Counted from the stretch's first letter, positions 16,010-35,497 are shown. The stretch: 64,000 bases of DNA from an uncultured Actinomycetota bacterium (GCA_963701105.1 OY969565.1:1014998-1078997); one strand, 5' to 3'. Numbers and translations are program-made. The notes: a model not told the origin generated them from the sequence alone.

Positions 16010-17680
<1,671 letters not shown>

Positions 17681-18023
17681 CTAAGTTTTATTTACAATTT
17701 TTATTTAATAATTATTAAATAAAATATTTTATCAATTATAAGAAATGATTCCGTTTAGGGTCCACAAAAAATAAATATTAGTGATTTATTAAGATGAAAT
17801 CCTAAATAGATTCTGAGGATACAATTTACAAGTAAATGATTAAACCTTATTAGTATATTAATTATTTGTTCTAATCATAAAAAACCATCGTATACGTTAT
17901 TGGATATAACTTAACTTTAATAAAATGTAATGGGACACAAAATCTAATTTTGTTTTTTGAATCAATTTAATAATTCTGTTTAATTTTTATATTAAGATAT
18001 CCATGAAATAATAATTTATTCTT

Positions 18024-19271
18024 ATGAATCCAAAAAGAGTCGTAATAATCGGCGGCGGCTTTGGTGGAATTACAGCTGCACGTCATTTGAATACCACTGA
18101 TCTTCAAATCACTTTAATTGACAGAACTAACTATCATTTATTTCAACCTCTTTTGTACCAGGTTGCAACGGCAGCACTTTCTCCGGGAGACATTGCCGTT
18201 CCTATTCGCGCTGTATTAAGCAAAAAGGAAAATACAGAAGTAATAATGTCAGAAGTTATTTCTATTGATAAGGATAAAAAACAAATTCATTTTAAAGACA
18301 GACGTATTGAGTTCGATTATTTAATAGTTGCACCGGGTGCAAGTCATTCATATTTCGGCAATAATGAATGGGAGAAATTTGCACCTGGGTTAAAAACTTT
18401 AAGCGATGCATTATCAATCAGAGAAAGAATTTTAATTTCTTTTGAAAAAGCTGAAATGATTTCCGACCCTGAAGGCAGGGTTAAGTACCTGACATTTGTA
18501 ATAGTTGGAGGCGGACCAACCGGAGTTGAAATGGCCGGCGCAATTGCAGAAATAGCAAAAAAAACTATGCTGCGCAATTTCAAAAATATTCGTCCGGAAG
18601 AAACAAGGGTTATTTTGGTTGAAGGAGCACCGAGAGTATTAACTGCATATTCAGAAAAATTATCGGAAAGTGCAAAACAGGCCCTTACAGAACTTGGCGT
18701 TAAAGTTATTACTGATAAAATGGTTACAAACGTAAATTCTAATGGTGTTCAGCTTAAAGATGAATTAATTGAAACAGAAAATATAATCTGGGCTGCCGGA
18801 AATGAGGCTTCTCCACTGCTAAAATCTCTTAACGTTGATCTTGACAAGGCAGGAAGAGTTGTTGTTGAAAAAGATTTAAGTATAAAAAATCATTCCGAAA
18901 TATTTGTAATCGGAGATGCAGCACAGGTTAAAGATGAACATGATGAACTGTTACCCGGAATAGCCCCGGTTGCAATGCAGCAGGCAAAGTATATTTCAAA
19001 CCTCATTAATAATAATGTTTCACCGGAAAGAAGAAAACCTTTTCATTATTTTGATAAAGGAATGATGGCAACGATAGGTAAAGCTAAAGCAGTTGCAAGA
19101 ATAAGGAAATTGGAATTTAAAGGATTTATTGCCTGGTTTCTCTGGTCGTTCATACACATCTTTTTTCTGATCACATTCAGAAACAGATTCAGAGTTATGG
19201 CGGAATGGATATGGCATTATATTACAGGCAGAAGAGGTGTAAGATTAATTACCAGAAAGAAAAACGATTAA
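18024..19271 (+). CDS. ndh: Type II NADH:quinone oxidoreductase (NDH-2)
   Basis: 415 aa with two dinucleotide-binding motifs (VIIGGGFGG, VGGGPTGVE) and a C-terminal membrane-association helix. Confidence 0.85.
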   Translation: MNPKRVVIIGGGFGGITAARHLNTTDLQITLIDRTNYHLFQPLLYQVATAALSPGDIAVPIRAVLSKKENTEVIMSEVISIDKDKKQIHFKDRRIEFDYLIVAPGASHSYFGNNEWEKFAPGLKTLSDALSIRERILISFEKAEMISDPEGRVKYLTFVIVGGGPTGVEMAGAIAEIAKKTMLRNFKNIRPEETRVILVEGAPRVLTAYSEKLSESAKQALTELGVKVITDKMVTNVNSNGVQLKDELIETENIIWAAGNEASPLLKSLNVDLDKAGRVVVEKDLSIKNHSEIFVIGDAAQVKDEHDELLPGIAPVAMQQAKYISNLINNNVSPERRKPFHYFDKGMMATIGKAKAVARIRKLEFKGFIAWFLWSFIHIFFLITFRNRFRVMAEWIWHYITGRRGVRLITRKKND

Positions 19272-19697
19272 ATGAATATTATTTTTTTCAATTTATTTCG
19301 AACAACCTGAAAATAATTTTTCAGAATCAAAACTTTTATTATTTGTTTAAGTGCTTTAGATACCCTAAAAATCCCTGTTGGGAAATAAGATAATTATTCA
19401 CTATTACTTTCAATAAATCCTATCAACTAATTGAATTTTATTTTAGTAAGTTATAAACAACATGATTAAGATCTTTTTATGAGCTTTAAGTCAGTATCAT
19501 AGTACTTTATCAAACTATTATTTTCTGCTTATGTAGGATCAGTTGTTGGTGATTTGGTAAAATCTTTGGTATCCATAAAACTAGGTATTTCTTTAAGGCT
19601 CTCAAGTTTAAATCTTTACAATGAAATTATCACCTGAAAATCTGTGATTCTCCTTTTCGCAGCAATTGGTATTATTTTCTTCATTCTATTTAAATAA
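18930..19697 (+). repeat. Direct repeat copy 1 (3' end of ndh, intergenic spacer and degenerate small ORF)
   Basis: Aligns by eye with 26044-26725. The ndh-derived part has about 21 substitutions, one 1-nt gap and one 9-nt gap over about 340 nt (hand count). The distal part is more diverged, and copy 1 carries about 80 nt extra around 19300-19380. Confidence 0.85.
19479..19697 (+). pseudogene. Degenerate copy of the small membrane-protein gene at 26504-26725
   Basis: Same frame and similar length (73 versus 74 codons), but with in-frame TAG (19500-19502, where the intact copy has TGG) and TGA (19635-19637). Confidence 0.7.
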
Positions 19698-19745
19698 TTA
19701 GGATAAACTAAATCGAAGAATAAAACGCGAATAAAAATCAAAGAA

Positions 19746-19782
19746 TAAATCCGTTATTCCAAGGAATGGATTTATTTTGCTT
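19746..19782 (+). terminator. Possible intrinsic terminator
   Basis: Imperfect inverted repeat ATAAATCCgttATTCC-aa-GGAATGGATTTAT followed by TTTTGCTTTC. It contains a bulge, so the call is weak. Confidence 0.35.
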
Positions 19783-19887
19783 TCAAATACTAATATAAAA
19801 ATTTGTGATGGGGATTAATTATTCGCTCGGAAATATCTGATAACTTTATTTTATGCATTCAAAAATTACCGGAATGAATTAAGAAAT

Positions 19888-20850
19888 ATGGGAGAATTCT
19901 TTAATTCAATAAGTAAATTTTTTTCATCTCTTTTCTACTCGGGCTCGGATGAAGCCTATAATATAAATAATATGTTCCTGCAGTATATGATGCTTGCAGG
20001 CGTTATCGTATTAATTGTTGCGGGATCTATTACTGTTGCAGCTATAATTTACAGGTCTAAAAAAAGACCTGCTCAGCCCAGACAAATTTTCGGAAATAAA
20101 AAGCTTGAATTCACATGGACTGTTGTGCCGTTACTTGCTGTAACATTCTTTTTCTTTCTTGCAGTAAGAACTATGTCTGAAATAAACGCTCCTTTTAATA
20201 AAAAGTCGCAGCCGGATATTGTAATAATAGCACATCAGTGGTGGTGGGATATAAGATATCCAAAATATGATGTGATTACTGCTAACGAACTACACATCCC
20301 AGTTGGGAAAAAATTATTAATGCGCGTTGAATCTGCAGATGTAATTCACGACTGGTGGGTTCCAGAACTTGGAAGAAAAATAGATGCTGTACCGGGTCAG
20401 TTAAATTATAACTGGATAGAGGCTGATACTGCTGGAGTTTATGCAGGAACCTGCAGTGAGTACTGCGGAATGGAGCATGCCTGGATGAGGATTATGGTAG
20501 TGGCGCAGGATAAGAATAACTTTAATAACTGGATAAAGAACCAGCAGAAAATACCTGAAGTACCGGTAAACAAACCTTCCCGAATAGGTGCGATTCTATT
20601 TCAGAAAAAAACTTGTGCTAACTGCCATTCAATAAACGGAACTCCTGCAGATTCGCATATTGGACCAGACCTCACGCATCTTGGATCACGTGCAACCCTT
20701 CTCTCGGGAATGCTCAAAAATAACAGAGTGAATTTAGCAAGATGGCTGAAAAATCCACAGAAAGTAAAAGAGGGGGCGCACATGCCGAATTTTATTCTCA
20801 GCAAAGAAGAGATAAATGCCCTTGTATCTTATCTGGAAGGATTAAAATGA
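19888..20850 (+). CDS. coxB: Cytochrome c oxidase subunit II with fused C-terminal cytochrome c domain (caa3 type)
   Basis: 320 aa with two N-terminal TM helices, a CuA motif (CSEYCGMEHAWM) and a C-terminal heme c motif (CANCH). Confidence 0.9.
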   Translation: MGEFFNSISKFFSSLFYSGSDEAYNINNMFLQYMMLAGVIVLIVAGSITVAAIIYRSKKRPAQPRQIFGNKKLEFTWTVVPLLAVTFFFFLAVRTMSEINAPFNKKSQPDIVIIAHQWWWDIRYPKYDVITANELHIPVGKKLLMRVESADVIHDWWVPELGRKIDAVPGQLNYNWIEADTAGVYAGTCSEYCGMEHAWMRIMVVAQDKNNFNNWIKNQQKIPEVPVNKPSRIGAILFQKKTCANCHSINGTPADSHIGPDLTHLGSRATLLSGMLKNNRVNLARWLKNPQKVKEGAHMPNFILSKEEINALVSYLEGLK

Positions 20851-22517
20851 ATTTAAAATTAAATATACCGGAATCTTCTGAGCCATTGCCTAATTTACGG
20901 TCGTCGAACGGTCTTTTATCCTGGATTACAACTGTTGATCATAAACAAATCGGAATAATGTACTTATGTGCTGCAGTTATATTTTTTCTGCTTGGATTTT
21001 CTGAAGCTCTACTTATGCGTATCCAGCTTATGCGTCCTGAAAATAGTTTTCTGTCACCTGAAGCATACAACCAGATATTTACGATGCATGGTACTACGAT
21101 GATTTTTATGGTTCTTACACCCATGCTTTTAGGATTTGCCACTTATCTCCTGCCGCTGATGATCGGTGCTAATGAGATGGCTTTTCCACGGCTGAATGCA
21201 TTCAGTTTCTGGATTTTCCTCTTCGGCGGTTTCTTGCTCTATTTCAGTTTTTTTGCAGGAGGAGCACCGGATGTAGGCTGGTTTAGTTATGCTCCTTTAA
21301 GCGAGACTAATTTCAGTATTTCTCCAGGTGTGAATTACTGGGCTTTTAGTATTATCCTGATGGGAGTTGGAAGCATTGGAGCTGCACTGAATTTTGTTTC
21401 TACTACTCTGACAATGCGAACAAAAGGACTGTCTATGACTAAGCTCCCCCTGTTCGTCTGGATGGTATTCGTAAATGCATTTTTAATGCTGGCAGCCTTT
21501 CCTGTGCTTAATGCAGGTCTGGCAATGATTTTAATAGATCGTATGCTTAATGCACATTTTTTCACAACAGCTACGGGCGGTTCAGCAGTACTCTGGCAGC
21601 ACCTATTCTGGACATTTGGTCATCCTGAAGTGTACATTCTTGCGTTACCAGCTTTTGGAATAGCATCAGAAGTTATCCCTGTATTTTCACGCAAGCCTAT
21701 ATTCGGATATGAATTTGTGGCCGCTTCAACTGTTGCTATTGCACTGCTTTCGTTCGGGGTGTGGGCTCACCATATGTTTGCAATGGGACTCGGGACAACA
21801 TTTAATGCATTTTTTGCTGCAACAAGCATGTTGATTGCAGTCCCAACTGGAGTTAAAATATTTAACTGGATTGCAACAATGTGGGGAGGTTCCATACAGT
21901 TTAAAACTGCGATGCTTTTTGCAACAGCTTTTTTGATTGAATTCACTATCGGCGGATTAAGCGGTGTGGGTTTCGCAATAGTTCCGATTGATTGGAGACT
22001 CACCGATACTTATTTCGTAGTTGCACATATACATTATGTATTCATTGGTGCTTCCTTGATGTGCGGATTTGCAGGTGCTTATTACTGGTTCCCAAAAATT
22101 ACAGGCAGAATGCTTTCGGAAAAACTGGGTAAATGGCATTTCTGGACATTCATTATCGGATTTAACGGGACATTTTTTGTTTTTCATCTGTTGGGATTAC
22201 TCGGTATGCCAAGGAGAGTTTTCACATATCCTGACCTGCCTTATTTTGGTTCCCTTAATATGTTTTCCACTCTGAGTTCATTTGTGCTGGGATTCTCTAT
22301 CCTGATCTTCATTTATAATATCTATTACAGCCTAAAAAAAGGGAAACCGGCAGGAGATAATCCCTGGCAGGCATGGACTCTTGAATGGCTTACAACTTCA
22401 CCGCCGCAGCTCAGAAATTTTAAGGATATACCACTTGTTAAAAGCCGGAGACCTTTATATGATTTAAATAATCCTGAGGCACCTGACTGGAAAATAAAAG
22501 CAGGGAAAGCAAAATAG
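20847..22517 (+). CDS. coxA: Cytochrome c oxidase subunit I
   Basis: The ORF track begins at 20742 inside coxB. I place the start at ATG 20847, which forms an ATGA overlap with the coxB stop (MNLKLNIP...). Heme-copper oxidase signatures are present: WTFGHPEVYILALP, WAHHMF, HYVFIG. Confidence 0.92.
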   Translation: MNLKLNIPESSEPLPNLRSSNGLLSWITTVDHKQIGIMYLCAAVIFFLLGFSEALLMRIQLMRPENSFLSPEAYNQIFTMHGTTMIFMVLTPMLLGFATYLLPLMIGANEMAFPRLNAFSFWIFLFGGFLLYFSFFAGGAPDVGWFSYAPLSETNFSISPGVNYWAFSIILMGVGSIGAALNFVSTTLTMRTKGLSMTKLPLFVWMVFVNAFLMLAAFPVLNAGLAMILIDRMLNAHFFTTATGGSAVLWQHLFWTFGHPEVYILALPAFGIASEVIPVFSRKPIFGYEFVAASTVAIALLSFGVWAHHMFAMGLGTTFNAFFAATSMLIAVPTGVKIFNWIATMWGGSIQFKTAMLFATAFLIEFTIGGLSGVGFAIVPIDWRLTDTYFVVAHIHYVFIGASLMCGFAGAYYWFPKITGRMLSEKLGKWHFWTFIIGFNGTFFVFHLLGLLGMPRRVFTYPDLPYFGSLNMFSTLSSFVLGFSILIFIYNIYYSLKKGKPAGDNPWQAWTLEWLTTSPPQLRNFKDIPLVKSRRPLYDLNNPEAPDWKIKAGKAK

Positions 22518-22520
22518 AAT

Positions 22521-23060
22521 ATGAAAAAGTATAAAGTAATGATGGCGTTATTTATTGCATCTGAAGCACTGTTCTTTGTTTCATTAATTGTCTCCTATGT
22601 GTATTATAACCACGGGAATGCATCCTCAACAGCCAAATACCTTGATATACAAAAAACCGGGCTGTTCACGATTGCCCTAATATTAAGCAGCGTAACAGTC
22701 CATATAGCTGGTTCTGAACTTGATAAAGGGAAACGTAAAATCGGATGGTTGATAATTACAATAATTCTTGGATTAATATTTCTCGTTGGCCAGGGTATAG
22801 AGTACGCTCATCTATACAGCTTAAATATAACTTTTAATCAGAATATTTTCGGATCAAGTTTCTTTACGCTTACGGGCTTCCATGGGTTACATGTTCTGCT
22901 CGGACTAATCGTCCTTACAATTATGGCATTTATGATAAATTCCGGAAGCTATCAGAAAGTTGAGTCAAAGGCTTTCAATTCAGCAATAATGTACTGGCAT
23001 TTTGTTGACGGTGTCTGGATAGTAGTTTTTAGTGTTGTTTATTTATGGGCGGTGGCATGA
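22521..23060 (+). CDS. coxC: Cytochrome c oxidase subunit III
   Basis: 179 aa with 5 TM helices. FFTLTGFHGLHVLLGLI and MYWHFVDGVWIVVF are typical of subunit III. Confidence 0.85.
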   Translation: MKKYKVMMALFIASEALFFVSLIVSYVYYNHGNASSTAKYLDIQKTGLFTIALILSSVTVHIAGSELDKGKRKIGWLIITIILGLIFLVGQGIEYAHLYSLNITFNQNIFGSSFFTLTGFHGLHVLLGLIVLTIMAFMINSGSYQKVESKAFNSAIMYWHFVDGVWIVVFSVVYLWAVA

Positions 23061-23881
23061 CTTTAGAAATTCTTTTAAGTAATTACTGGCACTTTAATAT
23101 TCCCTCTGCTGTCATTTTTGCGGTTCTGATTACATTTCATTTTGTAACCAACAGTTACAGATTTACAAAAAAGAGCATCAATTTTTTAATCGGGTTATTT
23201 CTTTTCATTCTGCTTACTTTTTCACCCCTGGAATTCATAGGTCATTATTACTTGTTCAGTGCGCATATGATTGAGCACATTTTGATCTTGCTTGTAATTC
23301 CGCCTCTTCTGCTTACAGGTACTGATAAAGAGTTCCTGCGGCAATTATTTGAAAGACCTGGATTCCGTAAATTTGGAAATTTTTTCTTTCATCCTATAAC
23401 CGCATGGCTTTTTGGTGTGGGTTCAATGTGGATATGGCATGCACCTCTTTTATTTATATCTATGATGCATAACCCTATAGTACATGTAATTGAAATGATT
23501 TCTCTTTTAACCTTCGGGCTTATTTTTGCATGGCCGGTATTCGCACCCATACGGTTTAAGAAATTAAATCCTCTGACAGCATCTTTATTTCTTTTCTCTG
23601 CATGTATTGGATGTACTATACTTGGAATTTTTATCACCTTTGCTCCCTCGGGATTTTATTCAGCATACATGACAGGAAATAATTTATCAATTCTCAATTT
23701 CCTTCAGTATAATATGGGAATAACACCGGATGTAGATCAGCAGGCTGCAGGATTAATTATGTGGGTTCCTGCTTGTCTTATTTATCTAACTCTAATAATG
23801 ATTTTAATGGCGAAGTGGTACAGTAAACCGGCAGAAGAGAGAGAAGATGACTTGCAATCTGACCGTTTTCATTTACCTTAA
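23057..23881 (+). CDS. ctaG: Cytochrome c oxidase assembly factor CtaG (Caa3_CtaG membrane family)
   Basis: Polytopic membrane protein (HMIEHILILLVIPPLLL motif). The start is preferred at ATG 23057, which forms an ATGA overlap with the coxC stop. The ORF track starts 12 nt earlier. Confidence 0.7.
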   Translation: MTLEILLSNYWHFNIPSAVIFAVLITFHFVTNSYRFTKKSINFLIGLFLFILLTFSPLEFIGHYYLFSAHMIEHILILLVIPPLLLTGTDKEFLRQLFERPGFRKFGNFFFHPITAWLFGVGSMWIWHAPLLFISMMHNPIVHVIEMISLLTFGLIFAWPVFAPIRFKKLNPLTASLFLFSACIGCTILGIFITFAPSGFYSAYMTGNNLSILNFLQYNMGITPDVDQQAAGLIMWVPACLIYLTLIMILMAKWYSKPAEEREDDLQSDRFHLP

Positions 23882-23899
23882 TAATGAAGGTGCTTATAT

Positions 23900-24121
23900 A
23901 TGGAAGAAACTAAAATGAAACAAATAGCTGAGGAATATGGTTACGAACTAACACCGGCTGAACCTGAAGAACTTCCCAAACCAACTTTATGGCCCATTGT
24001 TCTGGCTTTCGGACTCATATTTTTCTTTTGGGGCTTTCTGACATCTTTTATTATTTCAGGAGTAGCATTAGTAATAGTTGTTTTTGGATTGATGGGCTGG
24101 ATTAAGGAATTTAAATTATGA
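23900..24121 (+). CDS. Small two-TM protein of the respiratory operon
   Basis: 73 aa with two hydrophobic helices. Its stop overlaps the Rieske gene start (ATGA at 24118). No family recognised. It could be an accessory oxidase or bc subunit. Confidence 0.5.
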   Translation: MEETKMKQIAEEYGYELTPAEPEELPKPTLWPIVLAFGLIFFFWGFLTSFIISGVALVIVVFGLMGWIKEFKL

Positions 24122-24630
24122 AAGCCATATTATCTGAAAAAATAAACAGAAGGAGTTTCCTTACAAAAATTTTATTAGGCTTCAGCGGGTTAATTGCTGC
24201 ACTTGTCTCAATTCCTGTAATAGGTAGTTTGATTGCCCCGCTGGTCCGGTCAACACCCTCAGTATGGAGAAAAATTGGAAATGTATCCGATTTTGAAACA
24301 GGAAAAACGGTAATGGTTAAGTTCAGAAATGCATCACCACTGCCCTGGTCGGGGGAAACTTCCTTAACAGCCAGTTGGCTCCGTAAGAATTCCGATTCGG
24401 ATTTTGTAGCATTTGCAGTTAACTGTGCCCATCTCGGTTGCCCGGTAAGATGGATAGCGGACTCTGAACTTTTTCTATGTCCATGTCACGGCGGTGTTTA
24501 TAATAAGGATGGATCACGGGCAGCTGGTCCTCCGCTGACAGGATTATCTCATTATCAGGTGAGAATACGAAATGGAGAGGTGGAAATACTCACTGGTCCT
24601 GTTCCTATTACAAATCTTGGGAACGGATAG
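24118..24630 (+). CDS. Rieske [2Fe-2S] protein of a cytochrome bc-type complex
   Basis: 170 aa with an N-terminal Tat-like/TM segment (RRSFLTKILLG) and the cluster motifs CAHLGCPVRW and CPCHGGVY. Confidence 0.88.
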   Translation: MKAILSEKINRRSFLTKILLGFSGLIAALVSIPVIGSLIAPLVRSTPSVWRKIGNVSDFETGKTVMVKFRNASPLPWSGETSLTASWLRKNSDSDFVAFAVNCAHLGCPVRWIADSELFLCPCHGGVYNKDGSRAAGPPLTGLSHYQVRIRNGEVEILTGPVPITNLGNG

Positions 24631-24632
24631 TA

Positions 24633-26051
24633 ATGGGTAAAATTAAAAAATTATGGAATTGGATTGATGACAGAACGGGCATTTCAGAAACGCTAGGCCC
24701 GCTGGCTAAACATCTTGTTCCGCCAGGTAGTAAATGGACTTATGTATTCGGCAGCGCTACTTTGTTCGCTTTTATACTGCAGGTAGTAACAGGAGTTGCC
24801 CTTGCTTTAATGTACCAGCCTACCTCAGAAACTGCTTATGAATCATTAAAATATATTTCCAACCAAGCTTTGCTAGGAAATGTGTTGAGAGGCATACACT
24901 ACTTTGGTGCCTCTGCTATGATAATACTGATTGGTATTCATATGATCCGGGTTTTTCTTGTAGCCGCATATAAATATCCTAGGGAAATGAGCTGGCTTAC
25001 GGGAATAGTATTATTCGTCCTTACACTGGGAATGGGTTTTACAGGTCAACTTCTTCGCTGGGATAGTAATGGTATCTGGTCTGCAATAGTTGCTGCAGAA
25101 CAGGCTGGCAGACTTCCCATTATCGGAACTGAGGTTGCACGCTTCTTGCTTGCTGGCGATACAATAGGCGGAGCCACTTTAAGCCGTTTCTTTTCTTTTC
25201 ATGTATTTTTAATACCTGCACTGCTTTTTGGTTTAATTGGATTACACCTGTTTCTCGTAATTCGTAATGGTATTTCAGAACCTCCCAAATCCGGCAGAAA
25301 AGTTGATCCTAAAACCTACAGAAGCTGGTATAAAAATATGCTGGAGAAAGAAGGAGTTCCATTCTGGCCTAACGCTGCCTGGAGGGATATGCTGTTCGGA
25401 CTTGTTGTGGTTGTTATTGTCCTTATTCTTGCTGTCTGGTTTGGAGCACCCAAAATAGGTGCACCCCCTGACCCTTCTAATATCAATTCCAATCCTCGTC
25501 CAGACTGGTATTTCCTCTGGATCTTTGCATTGTTTGCATTGATGCCTCCATCAATTGAGTCGTATGTTATTGCATTCGGGCCGATAATAGTTGGACTGAT
25601 ACTTTTCCTTCTGCCATTAATATTTAATAAAGGTGAACGTAGTCCTGTCCGGCGTCCATGGTCAATTATTATTGTTTTATTTATAGTTACTATGATAGCA
25701 ACTTTATGGAATGTCGGTATTAAAGCTCCCTGGTCACCGCATTTTAATGTAAAACCCTTACCTGCACACATTGTTGGAAACATAGATGACATTTCTAAAC
25801 AGGGTGCAGATCTTTTTTATCATAAAGGCTGTTTGTACTGTCACACAATTTCCGATTATGGTGGTAAGCGCGGACCGGATTTGAGTACTGTTAGTGATCG
25901 GTTGACCCCGGATGAATTAAAAATAAGAATTGTAAACGGAGGAAAATATATGCCTCCTTATGGACCAAGTCTGTCCTCCGATGAATTAAATAAGATTATC
26001 AGTTTCCTAAAAACAAGAAAGACTGAGATAAAACAGATACCTGAAAGATGA
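24633..26051 (+). CDS. Cytochrome b (b6 plus subunit-IV-like part) fused to a C-terminal monoheme cytochrome c
   Basis: 472 aa. Heme-ligand His pairs sit in helices (GIHYFGASAMIILIGIHMIR; FSFHVFLIPALLFGLIGLHL), a PDWYFL motif is present, and the C-terminal CLYCH...YMPPYG is a cytochrome c module. Confidence 0.85.
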   Translation: MGKIKKLWNWIDDRTGISETLGPLAKHLVPPGSKWTYVFGSATLFAFILQVVTGVALALMYQPTSETAYESLKYISNQALLGNVLRGIHYFGASAMIILIGIHMIRVFLVAAYKYPREMSWLTGIVLFVLTLGMGFTGQLLRWDSNGIWSAIVAAEQAGRLPIIGTEVARFLLAGDTIGGATLSRFFSFHVFLIPALLFGLIGLHLFLVIRNGISEPPKSGRKVDPKTYRSWYKNMLEKEGVPFWPNAAWRDMLFGLVVVVIVLILAVWFGAPKIGAPPDPSNINSNPRPDWYFLWIFALFALMPPSIESYVIAFGPIIVGLILFLLPLIFNKGERSPVRRPWSIIIVLFIVTMIATLWNVGIKAPWSPHFNVKPLPAHIVGNIDDISKQGADLFYHKGCLYCHTISDYGGKRGPDLSTVSDRLTPDELKIRIVNGGKYMPPYGPSLSSDELNKIISFLKTRKTEIKQIPER

Positions 26052-26052
26052 G

Positions 26053-26375
26053 CATGATGAACTGTTATCGGGAATAGCTCCGGTTGCATGCAGCAGGCAA
26101 AGTATATTTCAAACCTCATTAATAATAATGTCTCACAGGAAAGAAGAAGACCTTTTCATAAAGGAATGATGGCAACGATAGGTAAAGTCAAAGCAGTTAC
26201 CAGGATAAGAAAATTGAAATTTAAAGGATTTATCGCATGGTTTCTCTGGTCGTTCATACACATCTTTTTTCTGATCACATTCAGAAACAGATTCAGAGTT
26301 TTGGCGGAATGGATATGGTATTATATTACAGGCAGAAGAGGTGTAAGATTGATTACCAGAAAGAAGAACGATTAG
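26053..26375 (+). pseudogene. 3'-terminal fragment of an ndh paralogue
   Basis: Corresponds to about the last 110 codons of ndh. The 5' portion and FAD/NAD domains are missing. A 1-nt deletion (GCAATGCAG to GCATGCAG) and a 9-nt deletion are present. The 95-aa ORF at 26088-26375 is the residual frame. Confidence 0.8.
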
Positions 26376-26503
26376 TTGAATATTATTTTTTTAAGTTATT
26401 TCGAACACATTAAGAATGATTATTACTATTACTTTCAATCAATCCTTGCAACTAATTGAATTTTATTTTAGTAAGTTGTAAACAACATAATAAAGATCTT
26501 TAT

Positions 26504-26725
26504 ATGAGCTTTAGGTCAGTATCCTGGTACTTAATCAAACTATTATTTTCTGCTTATGTGGGATCAGTTGTTGGTTATTTGGTGAAATCTTTGGTCTCTT
26601 CCAGAACAGATTACTTTCTTGATGCTATCTCTCCCGTAATTTTATATAATGAAATTGCCTCAGGAAATGTTATAATTATCTTCTTCGCGATTCTTGGGGC
26701 AGTCATCTTTATTATGTTCAAATAA
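26504..26725 (+). CDS. Small membrane protein (hypothetical)
   Basis: The ORF track starts at TTG 26456. ATG 26504 (MSFRSVSWYLIKLLFSAYVGSVVGYLV...) is more plausible. Two hydrophobic segments are present. Confidence 0.45.
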   Translation: MSFRSVSWYLIKLLFSAYVGSVVGYLVKSLVSSRTDYFLDAISPVILYNEIASGNVIIIFFAILGAVIFIMFK

Positions 26726-26833
26726 TTTCAAGCTAAGTCTATTCTTCCTCCTATATTTAAACTTCAGAACATATTTTTAATAACTGTTCAAAGACACATT
26801 CAGAAAAAATAAAAATATTGCAGTGTGATCTTT

Positions 26834-27382
26834 TCAGATATTAAATACCTGTTTAAGAGTAAACTTAAGTGTATCATTTACAGGAATTAGAAGAAGTGAT
26901 GGTCGCTCGACTTTAAATTCAGTCAGACTAATATTAAAAAATCCGTTAACAATTAATTTATTATCGGACCAATCAGAAACTGCTTTAATAATAATATCTT
27001 TTGTAACACCGTGAAAAGTAAGCTTTCCATACACTTTAAGACTATCGCCGTTTGACCCCACACTTGTACTTAGAAAAGTTGCATTCGGATCTGAGATAGC
27101 ATCAATTACCTCCATGGCGTGTGAGTCCCTGTTCGAATTACCTGAATTGAATGATGCCACGGCTACTTTAACCAGAACATTCTTAATTTCCCTGGTTTTG
27201 GGGTCAGCATAAATTAAACAAAGAGATTCTTTACTTACACCTTCAACTTCGTGAAGCGGATGAGTTAATTTATAGGTTATAAAAGATTCATTTTTAACGG
27301 CTTCATATTTCTGAGGTTGAGCAGTTATAACCGAAGCGGGTATTAATATACTTAAGATTAAAAATACTATGTAAAGTTTCAT
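26834..27382 (-). CDS. YceI-like periplasmic polyisoprenoid-binding family protein
   Basis: 182 aa with a signal peptide. FITYKLTHPLHEVEGVS...FNSGNSNRDSHAMEVID...LTFHGVTKDI is typical of the YceI family. Confidence 0.75.
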   Translation of the reverse strand: MKLYIVFLILSILIPASVITAQPQKYEAVKNESFITYKLTHPLHEVEGVSKESLCLIYADPKTREIKNVLVKVAVASFNSGNSNRDSHAMEVIDAISDPNATFLSTSVGSNGDSLKVYGKLTFHGVTKDIIIKAVSDWSDNKLIVNGFFNISLTEFKVERPSLLLIPVNDTLKFTLKQVFNI

Positions 27383-27395
27383 TTTGTACGCCTTA

Positions 27396-28109
27396 TTAAA
27401 ATGTTACTACAATCATGGCTGATGCAAATACTGCCGTTGTTATATACCCGGCTATCTGGTGGTAATGCGCTTTATCAATATTGAAATGTCTTCGTCCACC
27501 TATCATTGAGCCAAGTATCGGTGTTAGTATCATGCCTGCAACATGAATCCATGCAAGTGTTTTATGCAGTGTAGTGGTACTATTTTCTTCGCGTCTTATT
27601 AATGGAGGCGGTGAGAGAATTGCCAGCAGCCCGGTAAATGAGTATGAAACGATTGTCGCTGCTACTAATGATTGGTGGGTGTCTCCCATCCTCCTGTTTC
27701 CATCAATTACACGCTGACCGAAATAATCAGCGGTGAGCATCAACGCCAGTGTTGCGAAGCCTCCAATCTGGTGAGTTGTTAACATTGCACGCCGGATTTT
27801 GAGTTCGTGTTCCCTTTCCTGCGGGGAAAGCGGACTAACTAAACCTATCTTTCTTGTTAAACCATTTTCTCCCCAAAGAAAATTTTCCATAAAACTTATA
27901 TTTTCAGGCAGTAGTTTTGGTTCTGTTTCAGCCATTAATGAATCTACATTCCCAAAAACAGATTCGGTAGAATCAAAATCGTTTAGAGGAATTAAAGATT
28001 CTGTTACGTCCGAAGATCTCCTGACTAAATAATTCCTGAAAGCCAGAGATTGAGCAGGTAAAAAGGTTGAGGCCGAGAAGAAAATAATAATTATGACAAA
28101 CGATTTCAT
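27396..28109 (-). CDS. Membrane protein with His-bearing TM helices (hypothetical)
   Basis: Start preferred at ATG 28109 (MKSFVIIIIFFSASTFLPAQS signal). The C-terminal half has about 4 TM helices containing conserved-looking His (HQIGGFATLALM, LAWIHVAGMI, YHQIAGYI). It is adjacent to the YceI gene. Confidence 0.5.
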   Translation of the reverse strand: MKSFVIIIIFFSASTFLPAQSLAFRNYLVRRSSDVTESLIPLNDFDSTESVFGNVDSLMAETEPKLLPENISFMENFLWGENGLTRKIGLVSPLSPQEREHELKIRRAMLTTHQIGGFATLALMLTADYFGQRVIDGNRRMGDTHQSLVAATIVSYSFTGLLAILSPPPLIRREENSTTTLHKTLAWIHVAGMILTPILGSMIGGRRHFNIDKAHYHQIAGYITTAVFASAMIVVTF

Positions 28110-28412
28110 AGGAGTATTTAGAAAGCTTTTTGTATCAGGCTGATAAAAAAGAAGAGAACAAAAACACAAAGGGATCTTCATTTTTTCTCCACAAGTGATT
28201 TAAAATAAAAAAAGCAACCTTTGAAATAATTGCTATCAGCCTGGATTTTCCTCGCATAATAACAGGCTTCTAACAAATTTCTATAAACGTTGCTTTCTTA
28301 ATTATTGCCGATTAAAGTATTTCTAAGTTCAATTATTTCCAATACTTAAATAGTTATACTTGATTACTATCACAGGATGAAAAATTAATATCGAATTATC
28401 CTGTCAGCTGTT

Positions 28413-29204
28413 CTAAGTCTTAAGCTTTGCTTTTTTTATCACTATGAAAACTACTGCAATTGAAAGAAGTCCGGATGCCAGCACAAGCATAAGTACAAGC
28501 AAATCATTTCCTTTAGGAATAAAGCTGTAGCAAGTCTGCAAAACTTTTTCGATAGTGGAAGTAACTTCACCATTACCGGCTTTTTTAATAGCAAGTTCAA
28601 AATTAGATCGAAGTATTTTAAAATTGCCGCTCTTCTCATATCCCGGATCAAGGTATTGAACTATTTTTCCTGATCTATCTAAGAATATCAGAACACCCTT
28701 GTGTAAAAAACCTCCATAGCTCCTTTTAAATTCAAACCCTGCTGCGTCAGTCAGAGCATAAATACTGGTACTGTCACCCGTAAGAAAAACCCAGGATGAA
28801 TCGGGAATCTTTCGATCTGCCATTCCTATCATTGCCCGTTTTTTCCCCGCAGCCATTTCAGGAGTTTCATTCTGATCAATACTAATACTGATGATATTGT
28901 AATCTTTTCCGGGTTCATATTTAACCTTGCCAATAACATCCGAAATTTCCAGCATCAGGGGAGTACAAATTCCTGCACACTGGTAATAACAGAAATCAAG
29001 TACAGTTGGTTTGTTAACCAGATCTTTTAAAAATACTCTTTTCCCATCAGAGTTTGTAAAAGCTAAATTTAAAGGAATTTTCCTACCGAGGTGATGTACT
29101 ATTTCTGCCGAATCATAATCAGCATAAGTTGAAGAAATTGAAAAAGAAAGAGTCAGCAGGAAAATGAATGCAAAAAATTTAAATACTTCTAAGTTTGTTC
29201 TCAT
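28413..29204 (-). CDS. SCO1/SenC-family thioredoxin-fold copper chaperone
   Basis: 263 aa with a signal/anchor, a thioredoxin-like core with CAGIC (CxxxC) and a downstream His (FLHKG), and a C-terminal TM helix. Confidence 0.7.
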   Translation of the reverse strand: MRTNLEVFKFFAFIFLLTLSFSISSTYADYDSAEIVHHLGRKIPLNLAFTNSDGKRVFLKDLVNKPTVLDFCYYQCAGICTPLMLEISDVIGKVKYEPGKDYNIISISIDQNETPEMAAGKKRAMIGMADRKIPDSSWVFLTGDSTSIYALTDAAGFEFKRSYGGFLHKGVLIFLDRSGKIVQYLDPGYEKSGNFKILRSNFELAIKKAGNGEVTSTIEKVLQTCYSFIPKGNDLLVLMLVLASGLLSIAVVFIVIKKAKLKT

Positions 29205-29319
29205 AATTTATTTGTTCGTGCTTATTTTTTATTTATTAAGTACCAATTGTTGGAAAATTAATTAACCTCGGATTTAATTATTAAGATGATTGAAAATCCG
29301 ATAAGTTTCAAAAAGTAAT

Positions 29320-29667
29320 TTATTTCAATAATTTTTGCCCGAGTAAATAAACTAAAACATGATGAACAACTGATATTGAAACCAATGCCCAGCACAATAA
29401 CACCTGACCAACAGAAAATAAGGCATATGCCGCCAATCCTGAAATAATAATTTCTTCAGCCAAACGTAAATATTCTGCAATAGTTCCGGCATTCCGGAAG
29501 TCAACAACTCCCCAGATGCCGAATAATAAAAGAGGTGCACTGACTCCAAATAGAATTTTTGCAGTAACATTTTTTCCTGAAGTTATACCCCAGTAAGCAA
29601 ATGCGGCAACAATTCCGGATTCCATTATTCCTCTCAAAGCAATATTAATATTAGATAATAATTTCAA
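29320..29667 (-). CDS. DUF2568/YrdB-like small membrane protein
   Basis: 115 aa with 4 TM helices. AFAYWG...PLLLFGIWGVVDF resembles DUF2568. Confidence 0.5.
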   Translation of the reverse strand: MKLLSNINIALRGIMESGIVAAFAYWGITSGKNVTAKILFGVSAPLLLFGIWGVVDFRNAGTIAEYLRLAEEIIISGLAAYALFSVGQVLLCWALVSISVVHHVLVYLLGQKLLK

Positions 29668-29719
29668 TTCATATTTTCATCTTAATTAAAAATATAATTC
29701 AAGCAATAAAAATATTATT

Positions 29720-31045
29720 TTAGCTTGTACCCGTTTTGGAATCTTTAATATCCGGTTTAATCTTACGGTTCGTTCTGAATTCCCTGTAAATAAATTCAAC
29801 TAGAAATGACAATCCGAACATAACAACTAGTACCCACATATTTTGGGGTGACGTTTTTATAGTTTGAAAGATTAAAAATCCTAATGCTATTAAACAAAAT
29901 ATAATTCCTGTAAGAGGCATCCACCTGTTGGAACCGGTTTTTTTGTGCATTCGATAATTCGCAGCATTAACTGCTGCAAATACCAGGAGGAATCCGGCAC
30001 TACCCATTGTAGATATCCCGCTCAGGTCGAAAAGATTAGCTACAAGTAAAGTTAACACTGCCGTGATCAGAAGACCCTCAATGGGTTTGTTCCATATTTT
30101 ATTTTCCAACCGTGCAGGTAGTTCGCCGTCTTTAGCAATAACAAAACTTACTCTTGCGGCGCCGTACAAAGTTGCATTTATTGCTGAGCCGGTTGAAAGA
30201 ACTGCAGCGACTGCAATTAATGTAAAACCAAAATTTCCCATAAAAGGTTTTGCAGCTTCTGCTAAAGCATAATCTTTTGCCTCAATAATTTTCGGGACAG
30301 CAAGATTTCCAATGGTAACAGCAGCAATAAGCACATAAAGTATAATAACAAAAACTACTGCAGAATAATAAGCTCTTGGCAACGTCTTCTTCGGATTGTT
30401 AACATTACCCGCGGTATTAGCAATCAGTTCAAATCCCTCATATGCCAGAAAAATAATCATTCCCCCGGCAAACAGTTCGAGTGAACTGCTCCAGTTTACC
30501 GGTTTTAAATTCTGAGGGTCGATTGAACTAAACCCTATGCCTACAAATACTAGAAGTATAATTAGTTTAACAGCAACAATATATTCTTCTGCCTCACCCA
30601 CAAACTTAGCCCCGACTACATTCAGAAAAGTAAATAAAATAATTGATCCGCTTATAAGAATATGTTTCCAGATTTCATTTCCGCCAGGAATTAAACTTGC
30701 CCCATAACTGCCGAAAGCAAATGAATAAAGTGAGAGCATAACAATGTAGCTTAACCACAACAGAACATTCATTCCACCAGTAAATAAACCCCCACCATAC
30801 GCCTGGTTTAAAAACTCAACAGTACCTCCCTGGCTGGGGAAGGTTAAAGATAATTTGGTGTAAGAGTATGAAGTTATTAACGCTATAATTCCGGCTAAAA
30901 GGAATGCAACGGGTGTTCCCCCGTGGGCTAATTTTACGGCTAATCCGAGGACGGCAAAAATTCCGCCTCCAACCATCCCCCCGATTCCTATAGCAGTAAC
31001 AGATAAATATCCAATTTTTCCGTCCCCAGTTGAAGATTTGCTCAA
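29720..31045 (-). CDS. APC-family amino acid permease
   Basis: 441 aa with about 12 TM helices and an N-terminal GIGGMVGGGIFAVLG motif typical of the APC superfamily. Confidence 0.8.
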   Translation of the reverse strand: MSKSSTGDGKIGYLSVTAIGIGGMVGGGIFAVLGLAVKLAHGGTPVAFLLAGIIALITSYSYTKLSLTFPSQGGTVEFLNQAYGGGLFTGGMNVLLWLSYIVMLSLYSFAFGSYGASLIPGGNEIWKHILISGSIILFTFLNVVGAKFVGEAEEYIVAVKLIILLVFVGIGFSSIDPQNLKPVNWSSSLELFAGGMIIFLAYEGFELIANTAGNVNNPKKTLPRAYYSAVVFVIILYVLIAAVTIGNLAVPKIIEAKDYALAEAAKPFMGNFGFTLIAVAAVLSTGSAINATLYGAARVSFVIAKDGELPARLENKIWNKPIEGLLITAVLTLLVANLFDLSGISTMGSAGFLLVFAAVNAANYRMHKKTGSNRWMPLTGIIFCLIALGFLIFQTIKTSPQNMWVLVVMFGLSFLVEFIYREFRTNRKIKPDIKDSKTGTS

Positions 31046-31137
31046 GAGTTTTCCATGTCAATTATTATTTTTAATAATTTTTATTTTAATCAAAAACTAT
31101 TTCTATACCTGTGATTGAATCAACATTTAGGATTATA

Positions 31138-31974
31138 TTATTTTTTATCTCTCCATTCCTTCAGCATCTTCTTCATATTATCGAAATCAAAGGGTTGATT
31201 TTCCAACTTTGAACCATATTCTATTGCTTTCTCCATTGTGGCTATTGCTTCATCCTGCATGTTCATCTTTGCAAGATACTGTGCTTTAATTCTCTGGTTC
31301 CAGTAATTTTCATTTATCAGTTCAGAAGCCCTGATCCATCTGAAACCTTCCTCCAGGTTTACGTTATTCTGAAGACAATAAGTTGAAGCAGAATTTAGAT
31401 CTGCCCAGCTATTTAAATTCCTAGCACTTTCAAGAACAAGATTTTGTGTCTCAACTTCTACGTGAAATGAAATTTTTAGTTTCTCCCAAATCAGGTTTAC
31501 ATTTGCACTGTTCTCATCCATATCAGTAATTGTAAACGCCATTCTTTCTGTAAAAGGATTCTCTTCAGGTTTTACTTTAATTCTCAGAGCATCTTTAGAA
31601 TCATCATAGGTCATCGGATCATCAACTTTAGTATCTTTACTGAAAATAATTTCCCATTCTTCTTTACCGGGAATTGTGTGGATGCCGTAAGTTCCTGCAG
31701 CAAGTTCATTTCCATTTACTTTTACAGTTGTGCTGAATGTTATTGAAGTAACCTCATTAGCACCGGTTCTCCATATTTCACCATAAGGAACAAGTTCACC
31801 CCAGATTGTTCGTCCTTTAACACCCGGACTGCTATAATCAATAGTAATTTTTGTAATCCCTACTACCTGGCTTACCGTGGCATCCGGACTTGGCCTTGGA
31901 GTGCTGAAATTCTGTGCACTACTAATCTCAGCAAAAAGAAACATTACAATTATCGTTAAGAAATAATTACGCAT
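31138..31974 (-). CDS. DUF2911 domain protein
   Basis: 278 aa with a signal peptide. GRTIWGELVPYGEIWRTGANEVTSITF...LAAGTYGIHTIP matches the DUF2911 signature. The C-terminal region is helical. Confidence 0.7.
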   Translation of the reverse strand: MRNYFLTIIVMFLFAEISSAQNFSTPRPSPDATVSQVVGITKITIDYSSPGVKGRTIWGELVPYGEIWRTGANEVTSITFSTTVKVNGNELAAGTYGIHTIPGKEEWEIIFSKDTKVDDPMTYDDSKDALRIKVKPEENPFTERMAFTITDMDENSANVNLIWEKLKISFHVEVETQNLVLESARNLNSWADLNSASTYCLQNNVNLEEGFRWIRASELINENYWNQRIKAQYLAKMNMQDEAIATMEKAIEYGSKLENQPFDFDNMKKMLKEWRDKK

Positions 31975-32147
31975 AAAACTCCTACAGATTTATTATGATT
32001 ATTAAATATTTTTTTGTGGAAAAGTTCAGATGATGGAATTAAGATAATTATTGTTTATCTCTAATCCAATTTATTAATAGAGTGGAATGCTGAATCTTAG
32101 GGAAAATATTTATTAATTTCTGGATAAAATCATTCTCATTGTTCCGG

Positions 32148-33986
32148 TTATTGTGTGAACTCTGCTATTTGCTGAATAAAAGTCAGATCTTCAGGTACGG
32201 CATTGTCTATCCTTAATTGAATAAGTCCTGTACCGGCAGGACCTCCGTAATTTTTAATCCACGCAGTTGCTTCCCCAATTTCATTCAAAGCTAATACTGT
32301 TGTTACTTCTTTGGGATCTACTCCACCGAATCCTGTCCACCATTGGTTGAGTCCGAGCTTTTTTCCATCAGTCGTTGGAAAGCTGCAGTATAATCCGCGC
32401 AGTGCATCGGTTACAGTCCCTTTATAGTGAACATCCAGAATTTTTGAAGCCACCGTATAATCGATTGAGACCAATTTATCTGTTTTAGGATCTCTTATAT
32501 AACCCAAAGGGTTTGTACCTAATACTAAAGCTTTTCCACCTGAGGATAAATATTTTCTGAACAAATTCCGGTTTGATGAATCTGGAACAACAGAGTATGG
32601 AATTTTATTGCTTGCAAATATTACCACACCTGGTTTTTTGTCGTTTATCCTTTTATTAAAATATGCAGCGAGTTCTTTGCTTTCCAGCAATTCATATCCT
32701 TGTGAAACAAAATAATTTTTTATTGTTACATCAATTCCATTTTTAAACCACTTGTACCCCGACGTATCTTCCCAGAAAACAGCCTTCAATAATTTATTGT
32801 TAATCGGTCCCCCGTTTCCGTTTAAAGCATATATATAGCCATCATCGCAGCCAAAGCATATCACATCATTAAACAGTACGGGGGATGAAAGTATCCATTT
32901 TCTAAATTTGAAGGACCAGTTTTCTTCCCCTGTTCTAAGGTCCAGCTGATAAAGTTTGCCAACACCATCACCGAAATAAAGGTGATTACCTGAAATTGCG
33001 GGAGAACCCCACACAAGTCCGCTGGTATTATACCGCCAGATTTCTTTTCCGGTATAAAGGTCAACAGCCTGAACAAAATGACCATCTGACGAACCGGTGT
33101 AAACTGTTCCGTTCGATATCGCCGGAGTCGAAATTACCCACGAAACTTCATGATCAAATGTCCACATCTCTCTCCCTGTTTCAGCATTCAGTGCATAGAG
33201 AAAACCATCCCTTCCGCCAAAGCAAACGATATCATCTTCAACTGCAGGTGATGAGATTACTGCAGACCTGTCAAATGATTCTTCACCCATATTGTTTTGA
33301 GTTGCTCCGCCTTTGGTATCATACTCCCAAACCAGGGATCCATTGTCTGAATTAAGTGAATAAAAATGACCGTTCACATCACCGAATAAAACTGAATTTT
33401 TATAAACTGCCGGGGAAGATCTCACTCTACTGCCTGCAAAATACTTCCAGATAAGTGAACCATCATTTTTATTTAACGCATAAAGGTTTCCGTCCCCGCT
33501 GCCAAAATAAATTTCATTTTCTGAAACTGCCGGCGATGATAACAAGTAATCGAATGCCCACTTATAGGGTAAATCAATTCCTGTTTTAAATTTCCAGTTT
33601 AATTTACCGCTGGATGCATTCACAGAATAAAGGTAATTATCCGAACTAAGGAAGAATACGTTTCCCTTATCATCAATTGCCGGTGAGGAATTTACAGGTC
33701 CGCCAGTGTTAAATTTCCAGGTCAGTTCACCAGTTTCAGAATTCAACGCGTATAAATTATTATCCGTACTTCCGATAAAAACTTCACCATTACAATATAG
33801 CGGAGTTGATCTTACTGCACCGTCAGTTCTGAACGACCATGCAAATTCCTTCGGGCTGCCTATATATTCTGATTCATAAACCCCAGTGTGCGTAACATTT
33901 CCTCTGAACATATAGTGGGCTGCTGACTGAGGAGAACTTAAAGATGACATAAACACTGCGATTAGAACGGCAGATAATTTTTTCAT
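32148..33986 (-). CDS. PQQ-like beta-propeller repeat protein with extra C-terminal domain
   Basis: 612 aa with a signal peptide. It has more than 8 repeats of the G-x-LYALN...G-x-x-W pattern (BamB/PQQ-like), then an unrelated region of about 220 aa. Confidence 0.75.
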   Translation of the reverse strand: MKKLSAVLIAVFMSSLSSPQSAAHYMFRGNVTHTGVYESEYIGSPKEFAWSFRTDGAVRSTPLYCNGEVFIGSTDNNLYALNSETGELTWKFNTGGPVNSSPAIDDKGNVFFLSSDNYLYSVNASSGKLNWKFKTGIDLPYKWAFDYLLSSPAVSENEIYFGSGDGNLYALNKNDGSLIWKYFAGSRVRSSPAVYKNSVLFGDVNGHFYSLNSDNGSLVWEYDTKGGATQNNMGEESFDRSAVISSPAVEDDIVCFGGRDGFLYALNAETGREMWTFDHEVSWVISTPAISNGTVYTGSSDGHFVQAVDLYTGKEIWRYNTSGLVWGSPAISGNHLYFGDGVGKLYQLDLRTGEENWSFKFRKWILSSPVLFNDVICFGCDDGYIYALNGNGGPINNKLLKAVFWEDTSGYKWFKNGIDVTIKNYFVSQGYELLESKELAAYFNKRINDKKPGVVIFASNKIPYSVVPDSSNRNLFRKYLSSGGKALVLGTNPLGYIRDPKTDKLVSIDYTVASKILDVHYKGTVTDALRGLYCSFPTTDGKKLGLNQWWTGFGGVDPKEVTTVLALNEIGEATAWIKNYGGPAGTGLIQLRIDNAVPEDLTFIQQIAEFTQ

Positions 33987-34287
33987 TTTTGAATTACCTT
34001 GATTTATTTCCCGATTAAAATATTTTTTTACCGGAAATATTAAAAGTAAGTGATCATTGATTTCGACCGTTCATAAATTTCATTGCTTTATTTAATTATT
34101 GATAGATATGACTTAAGTTTTACTGTAAACATTTGAATTCATAGTAAATGCCTTTCAAAATTTTAAGACTCAAAAATTGTTGTCAGAATTAATGTAATCG
34201 GTAAAAATTGAAATGACATTTTCCCGGGTGAATAGGATTATTTTAACAGGATATTTTATTATCTAAATAAAAAGCCAGGCTGAAGAG

Positions 34288-34632: not shown

Positions 34633-34697
34633 TACCTATTTATCAATTATTATTTTATGTTAATACCGGGAAATAATTTTACAGGATAATTTAAATT

Positions 34698-35186: not shown

Positions 35187-35249
35187 AAGAAGCTGTTCTT
35201 TTATTTAAATCCCTTTATAAAATTCGATTAATAACTACCGGACGAAAAT

Positions 35250-35447: not shown

Positions 35448-35497
35448 CTAAAGAAAGATAAACCTGGTTATTTTAATAATATTTAATTGGTGACCAA

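Follow-up and report, generated by a model that had tools for sequence, protein, structure and literature searches.

Probable recombination of a respiratory operon behind ndh, with duplication of its target, in an uncultured Ignavibacteria lineage

Introduction

The primary papers on homology-facilitated illegitimate recombination (HFIR) are said to be those of de Vries & Wackernagel 2002 and Prudhomme et al. 2002. Inserts flanked by 0.1–1 kb duplications of a homologous target have experimental precedent (PMC3240628), and HFIR itself is defined in the same source. With a one-sided-homology construct in E. coli, most of the integrants recovered were single crossovers with duplications of 109–950 bp (PMC3240628), and inter-chromatid integration during transformation of pneumococcus leads to merodiploidy (Johnston et al. 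2013, PMC3784515). Here we analyse a 64-kb stretch of DNA from a metagenome-assembled genome (OY969565.1:1014998-1078997, referred to as the window; its strain is called W), in which an operon for a caa3 oxidase and a bc-type complex stands behind ndh, the gene for type II NADH dehydrogenase (NDH-2), between two direct copies of the ndh 3′ end and part of a small open reading frame (ORF). It is probable that this respiratory operon came from a related Ignavibacteria lineage with a locus of what we call type M, and that it recombined behind ndh with duplication of about 0.6 kb of the target. The event is a well-documented natural example of a known recombination class and provides no new mechanism or system.

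The locus resembles HFIR in that one end would have formed by homology, through a crossover in the small ORF, and the other illegitimately, between the end of the cytochrome b gene and ndh codon 303, with no mobile-element machinery involved. It differs in that the assay of PMC3240628 predicts a deletion in the recipient, whereas here 643 bp of the recipient are duplicated, which therefore calls for a second copy of the target on a sister chromosome or in a sibling genome. The homologous anchor is also short here, at ~60–65% identity overall. Campbell-type integration of a circle, as with suicide plasmids, likewise places sub-kilobase direct repeats around an insert and is in principle reversible, but vector-like genes are absent here, and the homology on the circle would be of recipient type and already fused to foreign sequence at both ends. 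In transformation merodiploidy one fragment engages two sister chromatids at different positions and so duplicates the interval. There, however, both pairings are homologous and the tandem repeats span 100–900 kb (PMC3784515), whereas here one join is illegitimate and 0.64 kb is duplicated around heterologous DNA. Integrase-mediated islands at gene 3′ ends share with this locus a partial copy of the 3′ end on the far side of the inserted block. In contrast to those islands, no integrase or mobility gene is found here and the repeats are ~550–640 bp at 91–93% identity rather than short att cores. Such islands bring a replacement 3′ end, whereas here the upstream native gene is intact and the copy on the far side is the recipient's own allele, duplicated and in decay.

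Results

A direct repeat of the ndh 3′ end brackets seven respiratory genes

A direct repeat of ~0.7 kb of the ndh 3′ end had been noticed by eye in the original prediction, and it is recovered by repeat search, by MAFFT alignment and by self-BLAST of the whole window. Positions are window coordinates, and features lie on the plus strand unless stated otherwise. The repeat pairs 18930-19572 with 26044-26597 in the same orientation at 91–93% identity, in two blocks that each reach 90.9%: 18930-19304 against 26044-26407 (gaps included, BLAST E 1e-140) and 19386-19570 against 26411-26595 (E 6e-66). It starts at ndh codon 303 and therefore contains the last 113 codons of the gene. Over the ndh-derived part the copies differ by 21–22 substitutions in 333 aligned nt (93.4% identity), one 1-nt gap and one 9-nt gap, so that the earlier hand count of about 94% and about 21 substitutions with the same two gaps holds. 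The extent first given, to 19697/26725, is correct as far as 19572/26597; beyond this point nucleotide identity falls to 59.5% and homology persists at the protein level. No other repeat comparable to the 18930/26044 pair was found by self-BLAST in the 64-kb window, where the only additional self-match is a 37-nt palindrome.

The left copy of the duplicated target (18930..19572, 643 nt) consists of ndh codons 303-415, a spacer and the first 94 nt of the small ORF, and is of recipient (W) type throughout. The right copy (26044..26597) has been reduced to 554 nt by deletions of 79, 9 and 1 nt. The largest of these removed a stretch of spacer (~79 nt, ~19322..19399) that the left copy and the sister genome both have and every right copy lacks; it is flanked by the 9-nt direct repeats ATAATTTTT (19313-19321) and ATAATTATT (19390-19398). 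Between the two copies lies an inserted foreign block of 6.47 kb (19573..26043), made up of the tail of a small ORF, a spacer and exactly seven respiratory genes, coxB-coxA-coxC-ctaG-73aa-Rieske-cyt b/c. That these seven are the only genes between the copies had been predicted and is confirmed by Pfam.

The two halves of the repeat differ in their state of preservation. The left ndh (18024..19271) is intact at 415 aa, matches Pfam Pyr_redox_2 (1e-50) and NDH2_C over its full length, is 92% identical in amino acids to ndh of the sister genome L003 and has the same upstream neighbours, TPR and pyrG; it is the predicted functional copy and orthologue of the sister-genome gene. The right ndh sequence (26044..26375, codons 303-415) is a 5′-truncated pseudogene fragment that has lost 1 nt at 26087 and a further 9 nt. 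For the small ORF the situation is reversed. The right copy (26504..26725) is the native one, an intact reading frame of 73 aa with two hydrophobic segments and 96% amino acid identity to the small ORF of L003, for which no Pfam or NCBIfam family was matched. The left copy (19479..19697) is a chimeric pseudogene, of recipient type to ~19572 and with a foreign tail from ~19573 to 19697, whose frame is interrupted by two stops (19500-19502 and 19635-19637) and by a −1 and a −2 frameshift. Functional genes are thus predicted for the left ndh and the right small ORF, and the left small ORF and right ndh fragment are pseudogenes. The original prediction had described the content of the left segment correctly (the last ~113 ndh codons, a spacer and a small ORF), the small ORF there being a pseudogene. 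Its recurrence of the segment at 26044-26725 stands as to orientation, with the right copy lacking the 79-nt spacer stretch and carrying a truncated ndh.

Both copies are of recipient type and the two junctions differ in kind

When the left and right copies of two strains are aligned with the sister genome, the repeat falls into four segments. In the ndh 3′ end (segment A) the left and right copies are 93.4% identical and the right copy is 89.5% identical to L003. The corresponding values are 87% and 76% in the spacer (segment B), 91.5% and 91.5% in the 5′ 94 nt of the small ORF (segment C), and 59.5% and 98.4% in its 3′ half (segment D). Site patterns across segments A–C comprise 41 L003-specific, 19 left-specific and 17 right-specific sites, and the two copies are therefore each other's closest relatives. 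Fifteen sites of the ndh segment at which both copies differ from L003 were polarised with L004, L005, L054 and L006 as outgroups: six are derived states shared by both copies, four are derived in L003 and five are ambiguous. The right pseudogene copy of more distant genomes with the same structure (the L113 group, below) is W-type at 14 of the 15 diagnostic sites, and therefore all right copies descend from one duplication of a W-type ndh. Both repeat copies are of recipient type.

The tail of the left small ORF has a different origin. Segment D of the left copy translates in register as a small-ORF homologue with the same stop position, and is 59–60% identical to the native W/L003 type and 62–66% identical to all other lineages. 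It retains ancestral residues (a KT.YF.KA motif) that have been replaced in the W/L003 clade. These comparisons show the tail (~19573-19697) to be foreign; it arrived with the module. Foreign DNA thus begins inside the small ORF, at ~19573, and not behind it as first assumed. The left junction J1 (19570..19576) is the point within the small ORF where recipient-type sequence switches to foreign and identity to both the right copy and L003 drops from 91.5% to 59.5%; it has the appearance of an in-register homologous crossover.

At the right junction J2 (26043..26044) the 3′ end of the cytochrome b gene runs into ndh codon 303; this junction is the same in every strain and by its sequence would be an illegitimate join of unrelated sequences. 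The homology on this side had been placed exactly at the cytochrome b stop codon. It does start at 26044, and the stop codon TGA (26049-26051) lies inside the ndh-derived sequence and is read in a different frame. Cytochrome b nevertheless keeps its full length of 472 aa as in relatives: its C-terminus reads ...KQIPER* against ...NSPTE*, ...KQTSE* and ...KQSSE* in native proteins, of equal length, the final 1–3 codons and the stop having been replaced by ndh-derived sequence.

The same structure occurs in divergent assemblies and has a single origin

The structure or its inner junctions are present in six assemblies (the window, L001, L002, L113, L114 and L115) from different samples, assemblers and archives. 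L001, a 113-kb ENA contig from another sample, is 98.8% identical to the window and contains both repeat copies, and the Logan contig L002, at 99.97% identity, spans both J1 and J2. Three further assemblies, L113–L115, from NCBI and JGI, have the same architecture at only ~95–96% identity to the window. J2, the 79-nt deletion and a +1 insertion are common to lineages ~4–5% apart, and the insertion event is of single origin.

Single-base indels differ between these assemblies (window positions 22077, 22879 and 32148-34070), and L002 has one extra base in coxC. L001 splits coxA and also a PQQ/MJECL34 gene that is a single ORF in W (640 aa) and in L113 (612 aa). Such indels are probably assembly errors and private 1-nt indels therefore need caution; those private to L001, which also split genes intact in W and L113, were down-weighted as evidence of decay.

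Relatives hold either an empty site or the module without ndh

A scan of species-representative genomes with ndh places the organism among the uncultured Ignavibacteria. In the sister genome L003 the gene order is TPR-pyrG-ndh-small-yceI-p261-sco-aaperm, with flank proteins 92–98% identical and the module absent at the locus. The empty site that the original prediction had envisaged, with ndh directly before the small ORF and no module, is found here and in five more distant relatives (L004, L005, L054, L092 and L093), which together we call type N. Type M loci, as in L085, L087 and L090, occupy the same chromosomal position with the order TPR-pyrG-small-coxBAC-ctaG-73aa-Rieske-cyt b-sco-aaperm and are without ndh. 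The nearest relatives of the cytochrome b gene sit in type M loci; in two of them, L116 and L117, sco directly follows cytochrome b. The order of the seven-gene module is conserved in more than 15 related loci. Among 80 ndh loci, ndh adjoins the module in the lineage of the window only, and no unduplicated ndh-small-module locus was found among these 80 or among the cytochrome b contexts examined. By gene order the window is read as a merger of a type N and a type M locus.

Flanking-gene identities group type N genomes (L005 and L054) and type M genomes (L087 and L090) in one clade, and the two states have therefore alternated at the locus more than once. Retention of sco beside the small ORF in type N loci (below) also hints that the family once had the oxidase operon here and that type N genomes have since lost it.

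The module and its flank have different closest relatives

L116 and L117 are the closest relatives of the module outside the species complex. W is 90–93% identical to them in cytochrome b, 95% in CoxA and 90% in CoxC, and 81% in the flanking sco; to other type M genomes the values are 81–86%, 80–86% and 75–79%, with 79–84% for sco. Module phylogeny disagrees with the flanks, and the discordance points to transfer from a type M lineage resembling L116/L117.

Searches for a closer source gave a best match of 73% in a scan of JGI metagenomes with CoxB and of 66% in a search of plasmids with the module. The latter is a 309-kb plasmid record of Fulvitalea axinellae (Bacteroidota; NZ_AP025318.1, 204911-210240), which covers 36% of the module query at ~66% nucleotide identity and has coxB, ctaD, subunit III, an assembly protein and cytochrome b annotated under the match. 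Base composition was also considered as a signal of foreign origin. The G+C content at third codon positions (GC3) is 0.31–0.36 in the module against 0.25–0.33 in the flanks, but cox genes are equally GC3-rich relative to the flanks in type M genomes; the difference is gene-intrinsic and uninformative, and this signal was rejected.

No gene for an integrase, recombinase, transposase, plasmid function, replication or mobilisation was found by Pfam in the insert or within 10 kb of it, and the inverted repeats associated with the insert are weak (70–74% complementary).

The redundant halves decay, convert and recombine

In the ndh part of the repeat 11 changes are right-specific and six left-specific, and in the spacer and small ORF the balance is opposite, with 13 left-specific and six right-specific changes. 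The counts suggest that selection is relaxed on the redundant halves, the right ndh fragment and the left small ORF. In W the right ndh fragment has lost 1 nt, as L002 confirms, and 9 nt elsewhere; in L001 −1 and +1 shifts result in four in-frame stops; and the L113 group has the +1 alone with 12 private substitutions. In the L113 group the whole left small-ORF pseudogene has been deleted, between AGAATCAAAAC (19323-19333) and AGAATAAAAC (19717-19726).

The two copies also exchange sequence. A gene-conversion tract from the right copy into the left (19004..19017) contains four W-specific changes within 14 nt, all of them equal to derived states of the right copy, where the left copy of L001 and L003 have the ancestral states; markers at 18965 and 19024 bound it. 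On account of this tract the repeats are taken to be recombinationally active. Beyond the repeat the flanks are mosaic, L113 going with W in pyrG and yceI and with L003 in sco, aaperm and DUF2911, so that these lineages exchange DNA by homologous recombination across the locus. The module itself is polymorphic, present in some members of a recombining species complex and absent from others.

Two further observations concern recombination around the module. The 261-aa gene (27396-28181) diverges by ~25% at the nucleotide level in the L113 group (L113 10990-11529, called as 179 aa) and by 3.8% between W and L003; such divergence suggests that the allele of the L113 group was replaced, as part of the mosaic right flank. 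Divergence between W and L001 is uneven over 17906-36034, at 2.5% in the 5′ part of ndh, 0% in 19573-19887, 0.68% in the module and 0.85–1.5% in the right flank, with most of the derived states on the W side. This unevenness is consistent with a sweep over the module or with recent recombination.

That the right ndh fragment is a conserved small gene was considered and rejected. Its ten right-derived substitutions fall equally at codon positions 1–2 and at position 3 (5 nonsynonymous and 5 synonymous), neutrality is not rejected (P = 0.12), and L001 and the L113 group differ in how the frame is disrupted. A 95-aa ORF with an NDH2_C domain (26088-26375) is open in this strain only. At the site of a 1-nt deletion in L001, the right copy of W has instead lost 9 nt in frame, and the +1 of L001 and the L113 group is absent from it; both differences restore the frame. 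The open ORF could be due to chance, assembly error or weak selection. Its expression downstream of cytochrome b is a weaker side possibility.

Genes of the module and its neighbourhood

The module is predicted to encode a caa3 oxidase and a bc-type complex, all expected domains exceeding Pfam cut-offs. The coxB gene (19888..20850) would encode a caa3-type subunit II with a C-terminal cytochrome c domain (COX2, COX2_TM and Cytochrom_C) and coxA (20847..22517) a subunit I of 556 aa (COX1, 3.5e-156) from the ATG at 20847, the start used in gene calls of relatives. They are followed by coxC for subunit III (22521..23060, COX3) and by ctaG for a caa3 oxidase assembly factor (23057..23881, Caa3_CtaG, 3e-41). 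The next gene (23900..24121) encodes a 73-aa membrane protein whose match to Cyt_c_ox_IV is weak and does not reach the curated cut-off. It keeps this position in every relative with the module and may be a small oxidase subunit. A Rieske iron-sulfur protein (24118..24630, Pfam Rieske) and a Pfam-supported cytochrome b of 472 aa with a fused C-terminal cytochrome c domain (24633..26051) complete the operon. The native right flank (26834..29204, minus strand) consists of yceI, the gene for the 261-aa protein and sco, which encodes a SCO1/SenC copper chaperone (28413-29204), and is collinear with the sister genome.

A scan of 17600-27000 for promoters and terminators returned fewer matches than shuffled controls and nothing usable. 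The self-matching palindrome, AT-rich and near-perfect over 37 nt, lies between pyrG and ndh (17693-17731) and could be an operator or a bidirectional terminator. In relatives, sco stays beside the small ORF even in the module-less type N loci of L005, L054, L092 and L093. L091 has an ndh orthologue (10001-11242, 77% amino acid identity) between DsbD-like and acetyltransferase genes, an unrelated context, and ndh is therefore not fixed at the pyrG locus in the family. In the type M relative L083 (11483-17301) the module is followed by a second, convergent cluster, which encodes several cytochromes c, a Rieske protein and a cytochrome b of 647 aa that has two cytochrome c domains.

Discussion

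The arrangement described here provides a model for how the operon may have entered the locus. The ancestor would have had a type N locus, pyrG-ndh-small ORF-yceI-p261-sco, and the incoming DNA would have come from a related Ignavibacteria lineage with a type M locus, pyrG-small ORF-coxBAC-ctaG-73aa-Rieske-cyt b/c-sco. On the left side the small-ORF alleles would have crossed over in register at ~19572; on the right side the end of the cytochrome b gene, 1–3 codons from its native stop, would have been joined illegitimately to ndh codon 303 (26043/26044). Measured on the recipient, this join is 643 bp upstream of the one on the left, and therefore the ndh 3′ end, the spacer and the 5′ half of the small ORF flank the 6.47-kb insert on both sides. 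This would leave ndh intact and cytochrome b intact at full length on the left, with the native small ORF intact on the right. Afterwards the chimeric left small ORF and the right ndh fragment would have decayed, with occasional gene conversion between the copies.

Two physical routes may be envisaged for this history. In one step, the incoming fragment would bridge two sister chromosomes. In two steps, a clean allelic replacement (giving ndh-chimeric small-module-sco) would come first, followed by a second event with a type N sibling chromosome, either a single crossover of an excised circle or recombination by one-sided homology. A Campbell-type single crossover is possible only as the last step of such a two-step history, and the sequence fits an inter-chromatid homology-plus-illegitimate join equally well.

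Several points weigh against this account. Microhomology at J2 is not readable without the donor sequence, with at most ~2–3 A residues possible. The discordance of module and flank is based on one full flanking gene, sco, and on partial aaperm. No donor with a near-identical module or small-ORF tail was found, the best cytochrome b outside the complex being 92.8% identical, and the contigs of L116 and L117 end before the small ORF; the type of the donor, like the physical route, is therefore what we infer. The absence of the module from L003 applies to this locus. Gene conversion could make the two copies look more closely related than they are and obscure the dating, and the opposite excesses of changes in the two halves of the repeat are also expected from a Campbell event with a slightly diverged sibling.

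The alternative that stands up best, although we consider it doubtful, is the integration of a circular DNA that carried the module and a homologous ndh-3′/small-ORF segment by one Campbell-type crossover, as first proposed for this window. The architecture is exactly that of a single-crossover product and relatives have the empty site; single crossovers with duplications of 109–950 bp are also what most E. coli integrants show (PMC3240628), and the opposite excesses of derived changes would agree with a crossover close to the ndh stop, the partner being a slightly diverged sibling. The homology on the circle, however, must be W-type, closer than the sister species, and yet already fused to the foreign tail and to the cytochrome b end. 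The circle would therefore not have come directly from the donor, and an earlier chimeric chromosome in the same population is required. The insert also has no replication, integrase or mobilisation gene and no close plasmid match. From the original proposal, insertion with target duplication, the architecture and the polymorphism of the module thus survive, and a donor circle with ndh homology of its own does not, both copies being recipient-type.

A second alternative, which we regard as unlikely, is that the duplicated structure predates the split from L003 and that L003 lost the module by recombination between the repeats. The insertion is old, shared by lineages ~4–5% apart and thus nearly as deep as the ~7% split from L003, and deletion between the repeats would yield exactly the L003 gene order. 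The repeats do recombine, as the gene conversion shows, and the lineages exchange flanking DNA. The ndh 3′ end of L003, however, is ancestral at the six polarised sites that are derived in both W copies and in all right pseudogene copies, is W-type at 0/15 diagnostic sites and matches left and right copies in an interleaved pattern with no single switch. Five more relatives lack the module at the locus, which makes a single gain more parsimonious. That the module could be lost by recombination between the repeats, as the original prediction had suggested, is plausible given the gene conversion between them; the deletion itself has not been observed.

It is very improbable that no transfer took place, with ndh-small-module as the ancestral order and the repeat as an internal duplication. 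Retention of sco at the locus in module-less genomes, and the occurrence of both ndh and the module at this locus across the family, hint at such an ancestry. An internal duplication, however, cannot account for a left small ORF with 91.5% identity to the right copy over its 5′ half and 59.5% over its 3′ half, nor for the discordance of module and sco; an unduplicated locus of this order is also missing from the 80 ndh loci and the cytochrome b contexts. A chimeric contig of co-occurring type N and type M strains, conceivable for a metagenome-assembled genome whose single-base indels differ between assemblies, is rejected as having a negligible chance, with the structure or its junctions present in six assemblies of lineages 1–5% diverged, including the L002 contig that runs through J1 and J2.

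Transfer of a type M operon into a type N locus with duplication of the target thus remains the preferred reading, and may be part of a wider pattern. With type N and type M loci interleaved in one clade and the flanks mosaic among W, L113 and L003, we would speculate, at long odds, that the pyrG...sco interval is a recombination hot spot in which the small ORF serves as a homology handle for swapping NDH-2 and the oxidase/bc operon between lineages, and that the 0.6-kb repeats make aerobic respiration excisable and polymorphic at the population level.

The locus offers a well-resolved natural case of a respiratory operon, for a bc-type complex and a caa3 oxidase, entering a chromosome without a mobile element, in which one can read the two junctions, the empty site, a candidate type of donor locus and the decay of the scars. 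Natural insertions by homology plus illegitimate joining with target duplication may be rare outside laboratory systems. For annotation, the extra ndh fragment and the left small ORF should be treated as recombination scars and not as genes. For the organism, the insertion brings a complete NADH-to-oxygen chain together at a single locus in one lineage, part of a soil species complex, whose sister is without the module there, and may bear on adaptation to oxygen.

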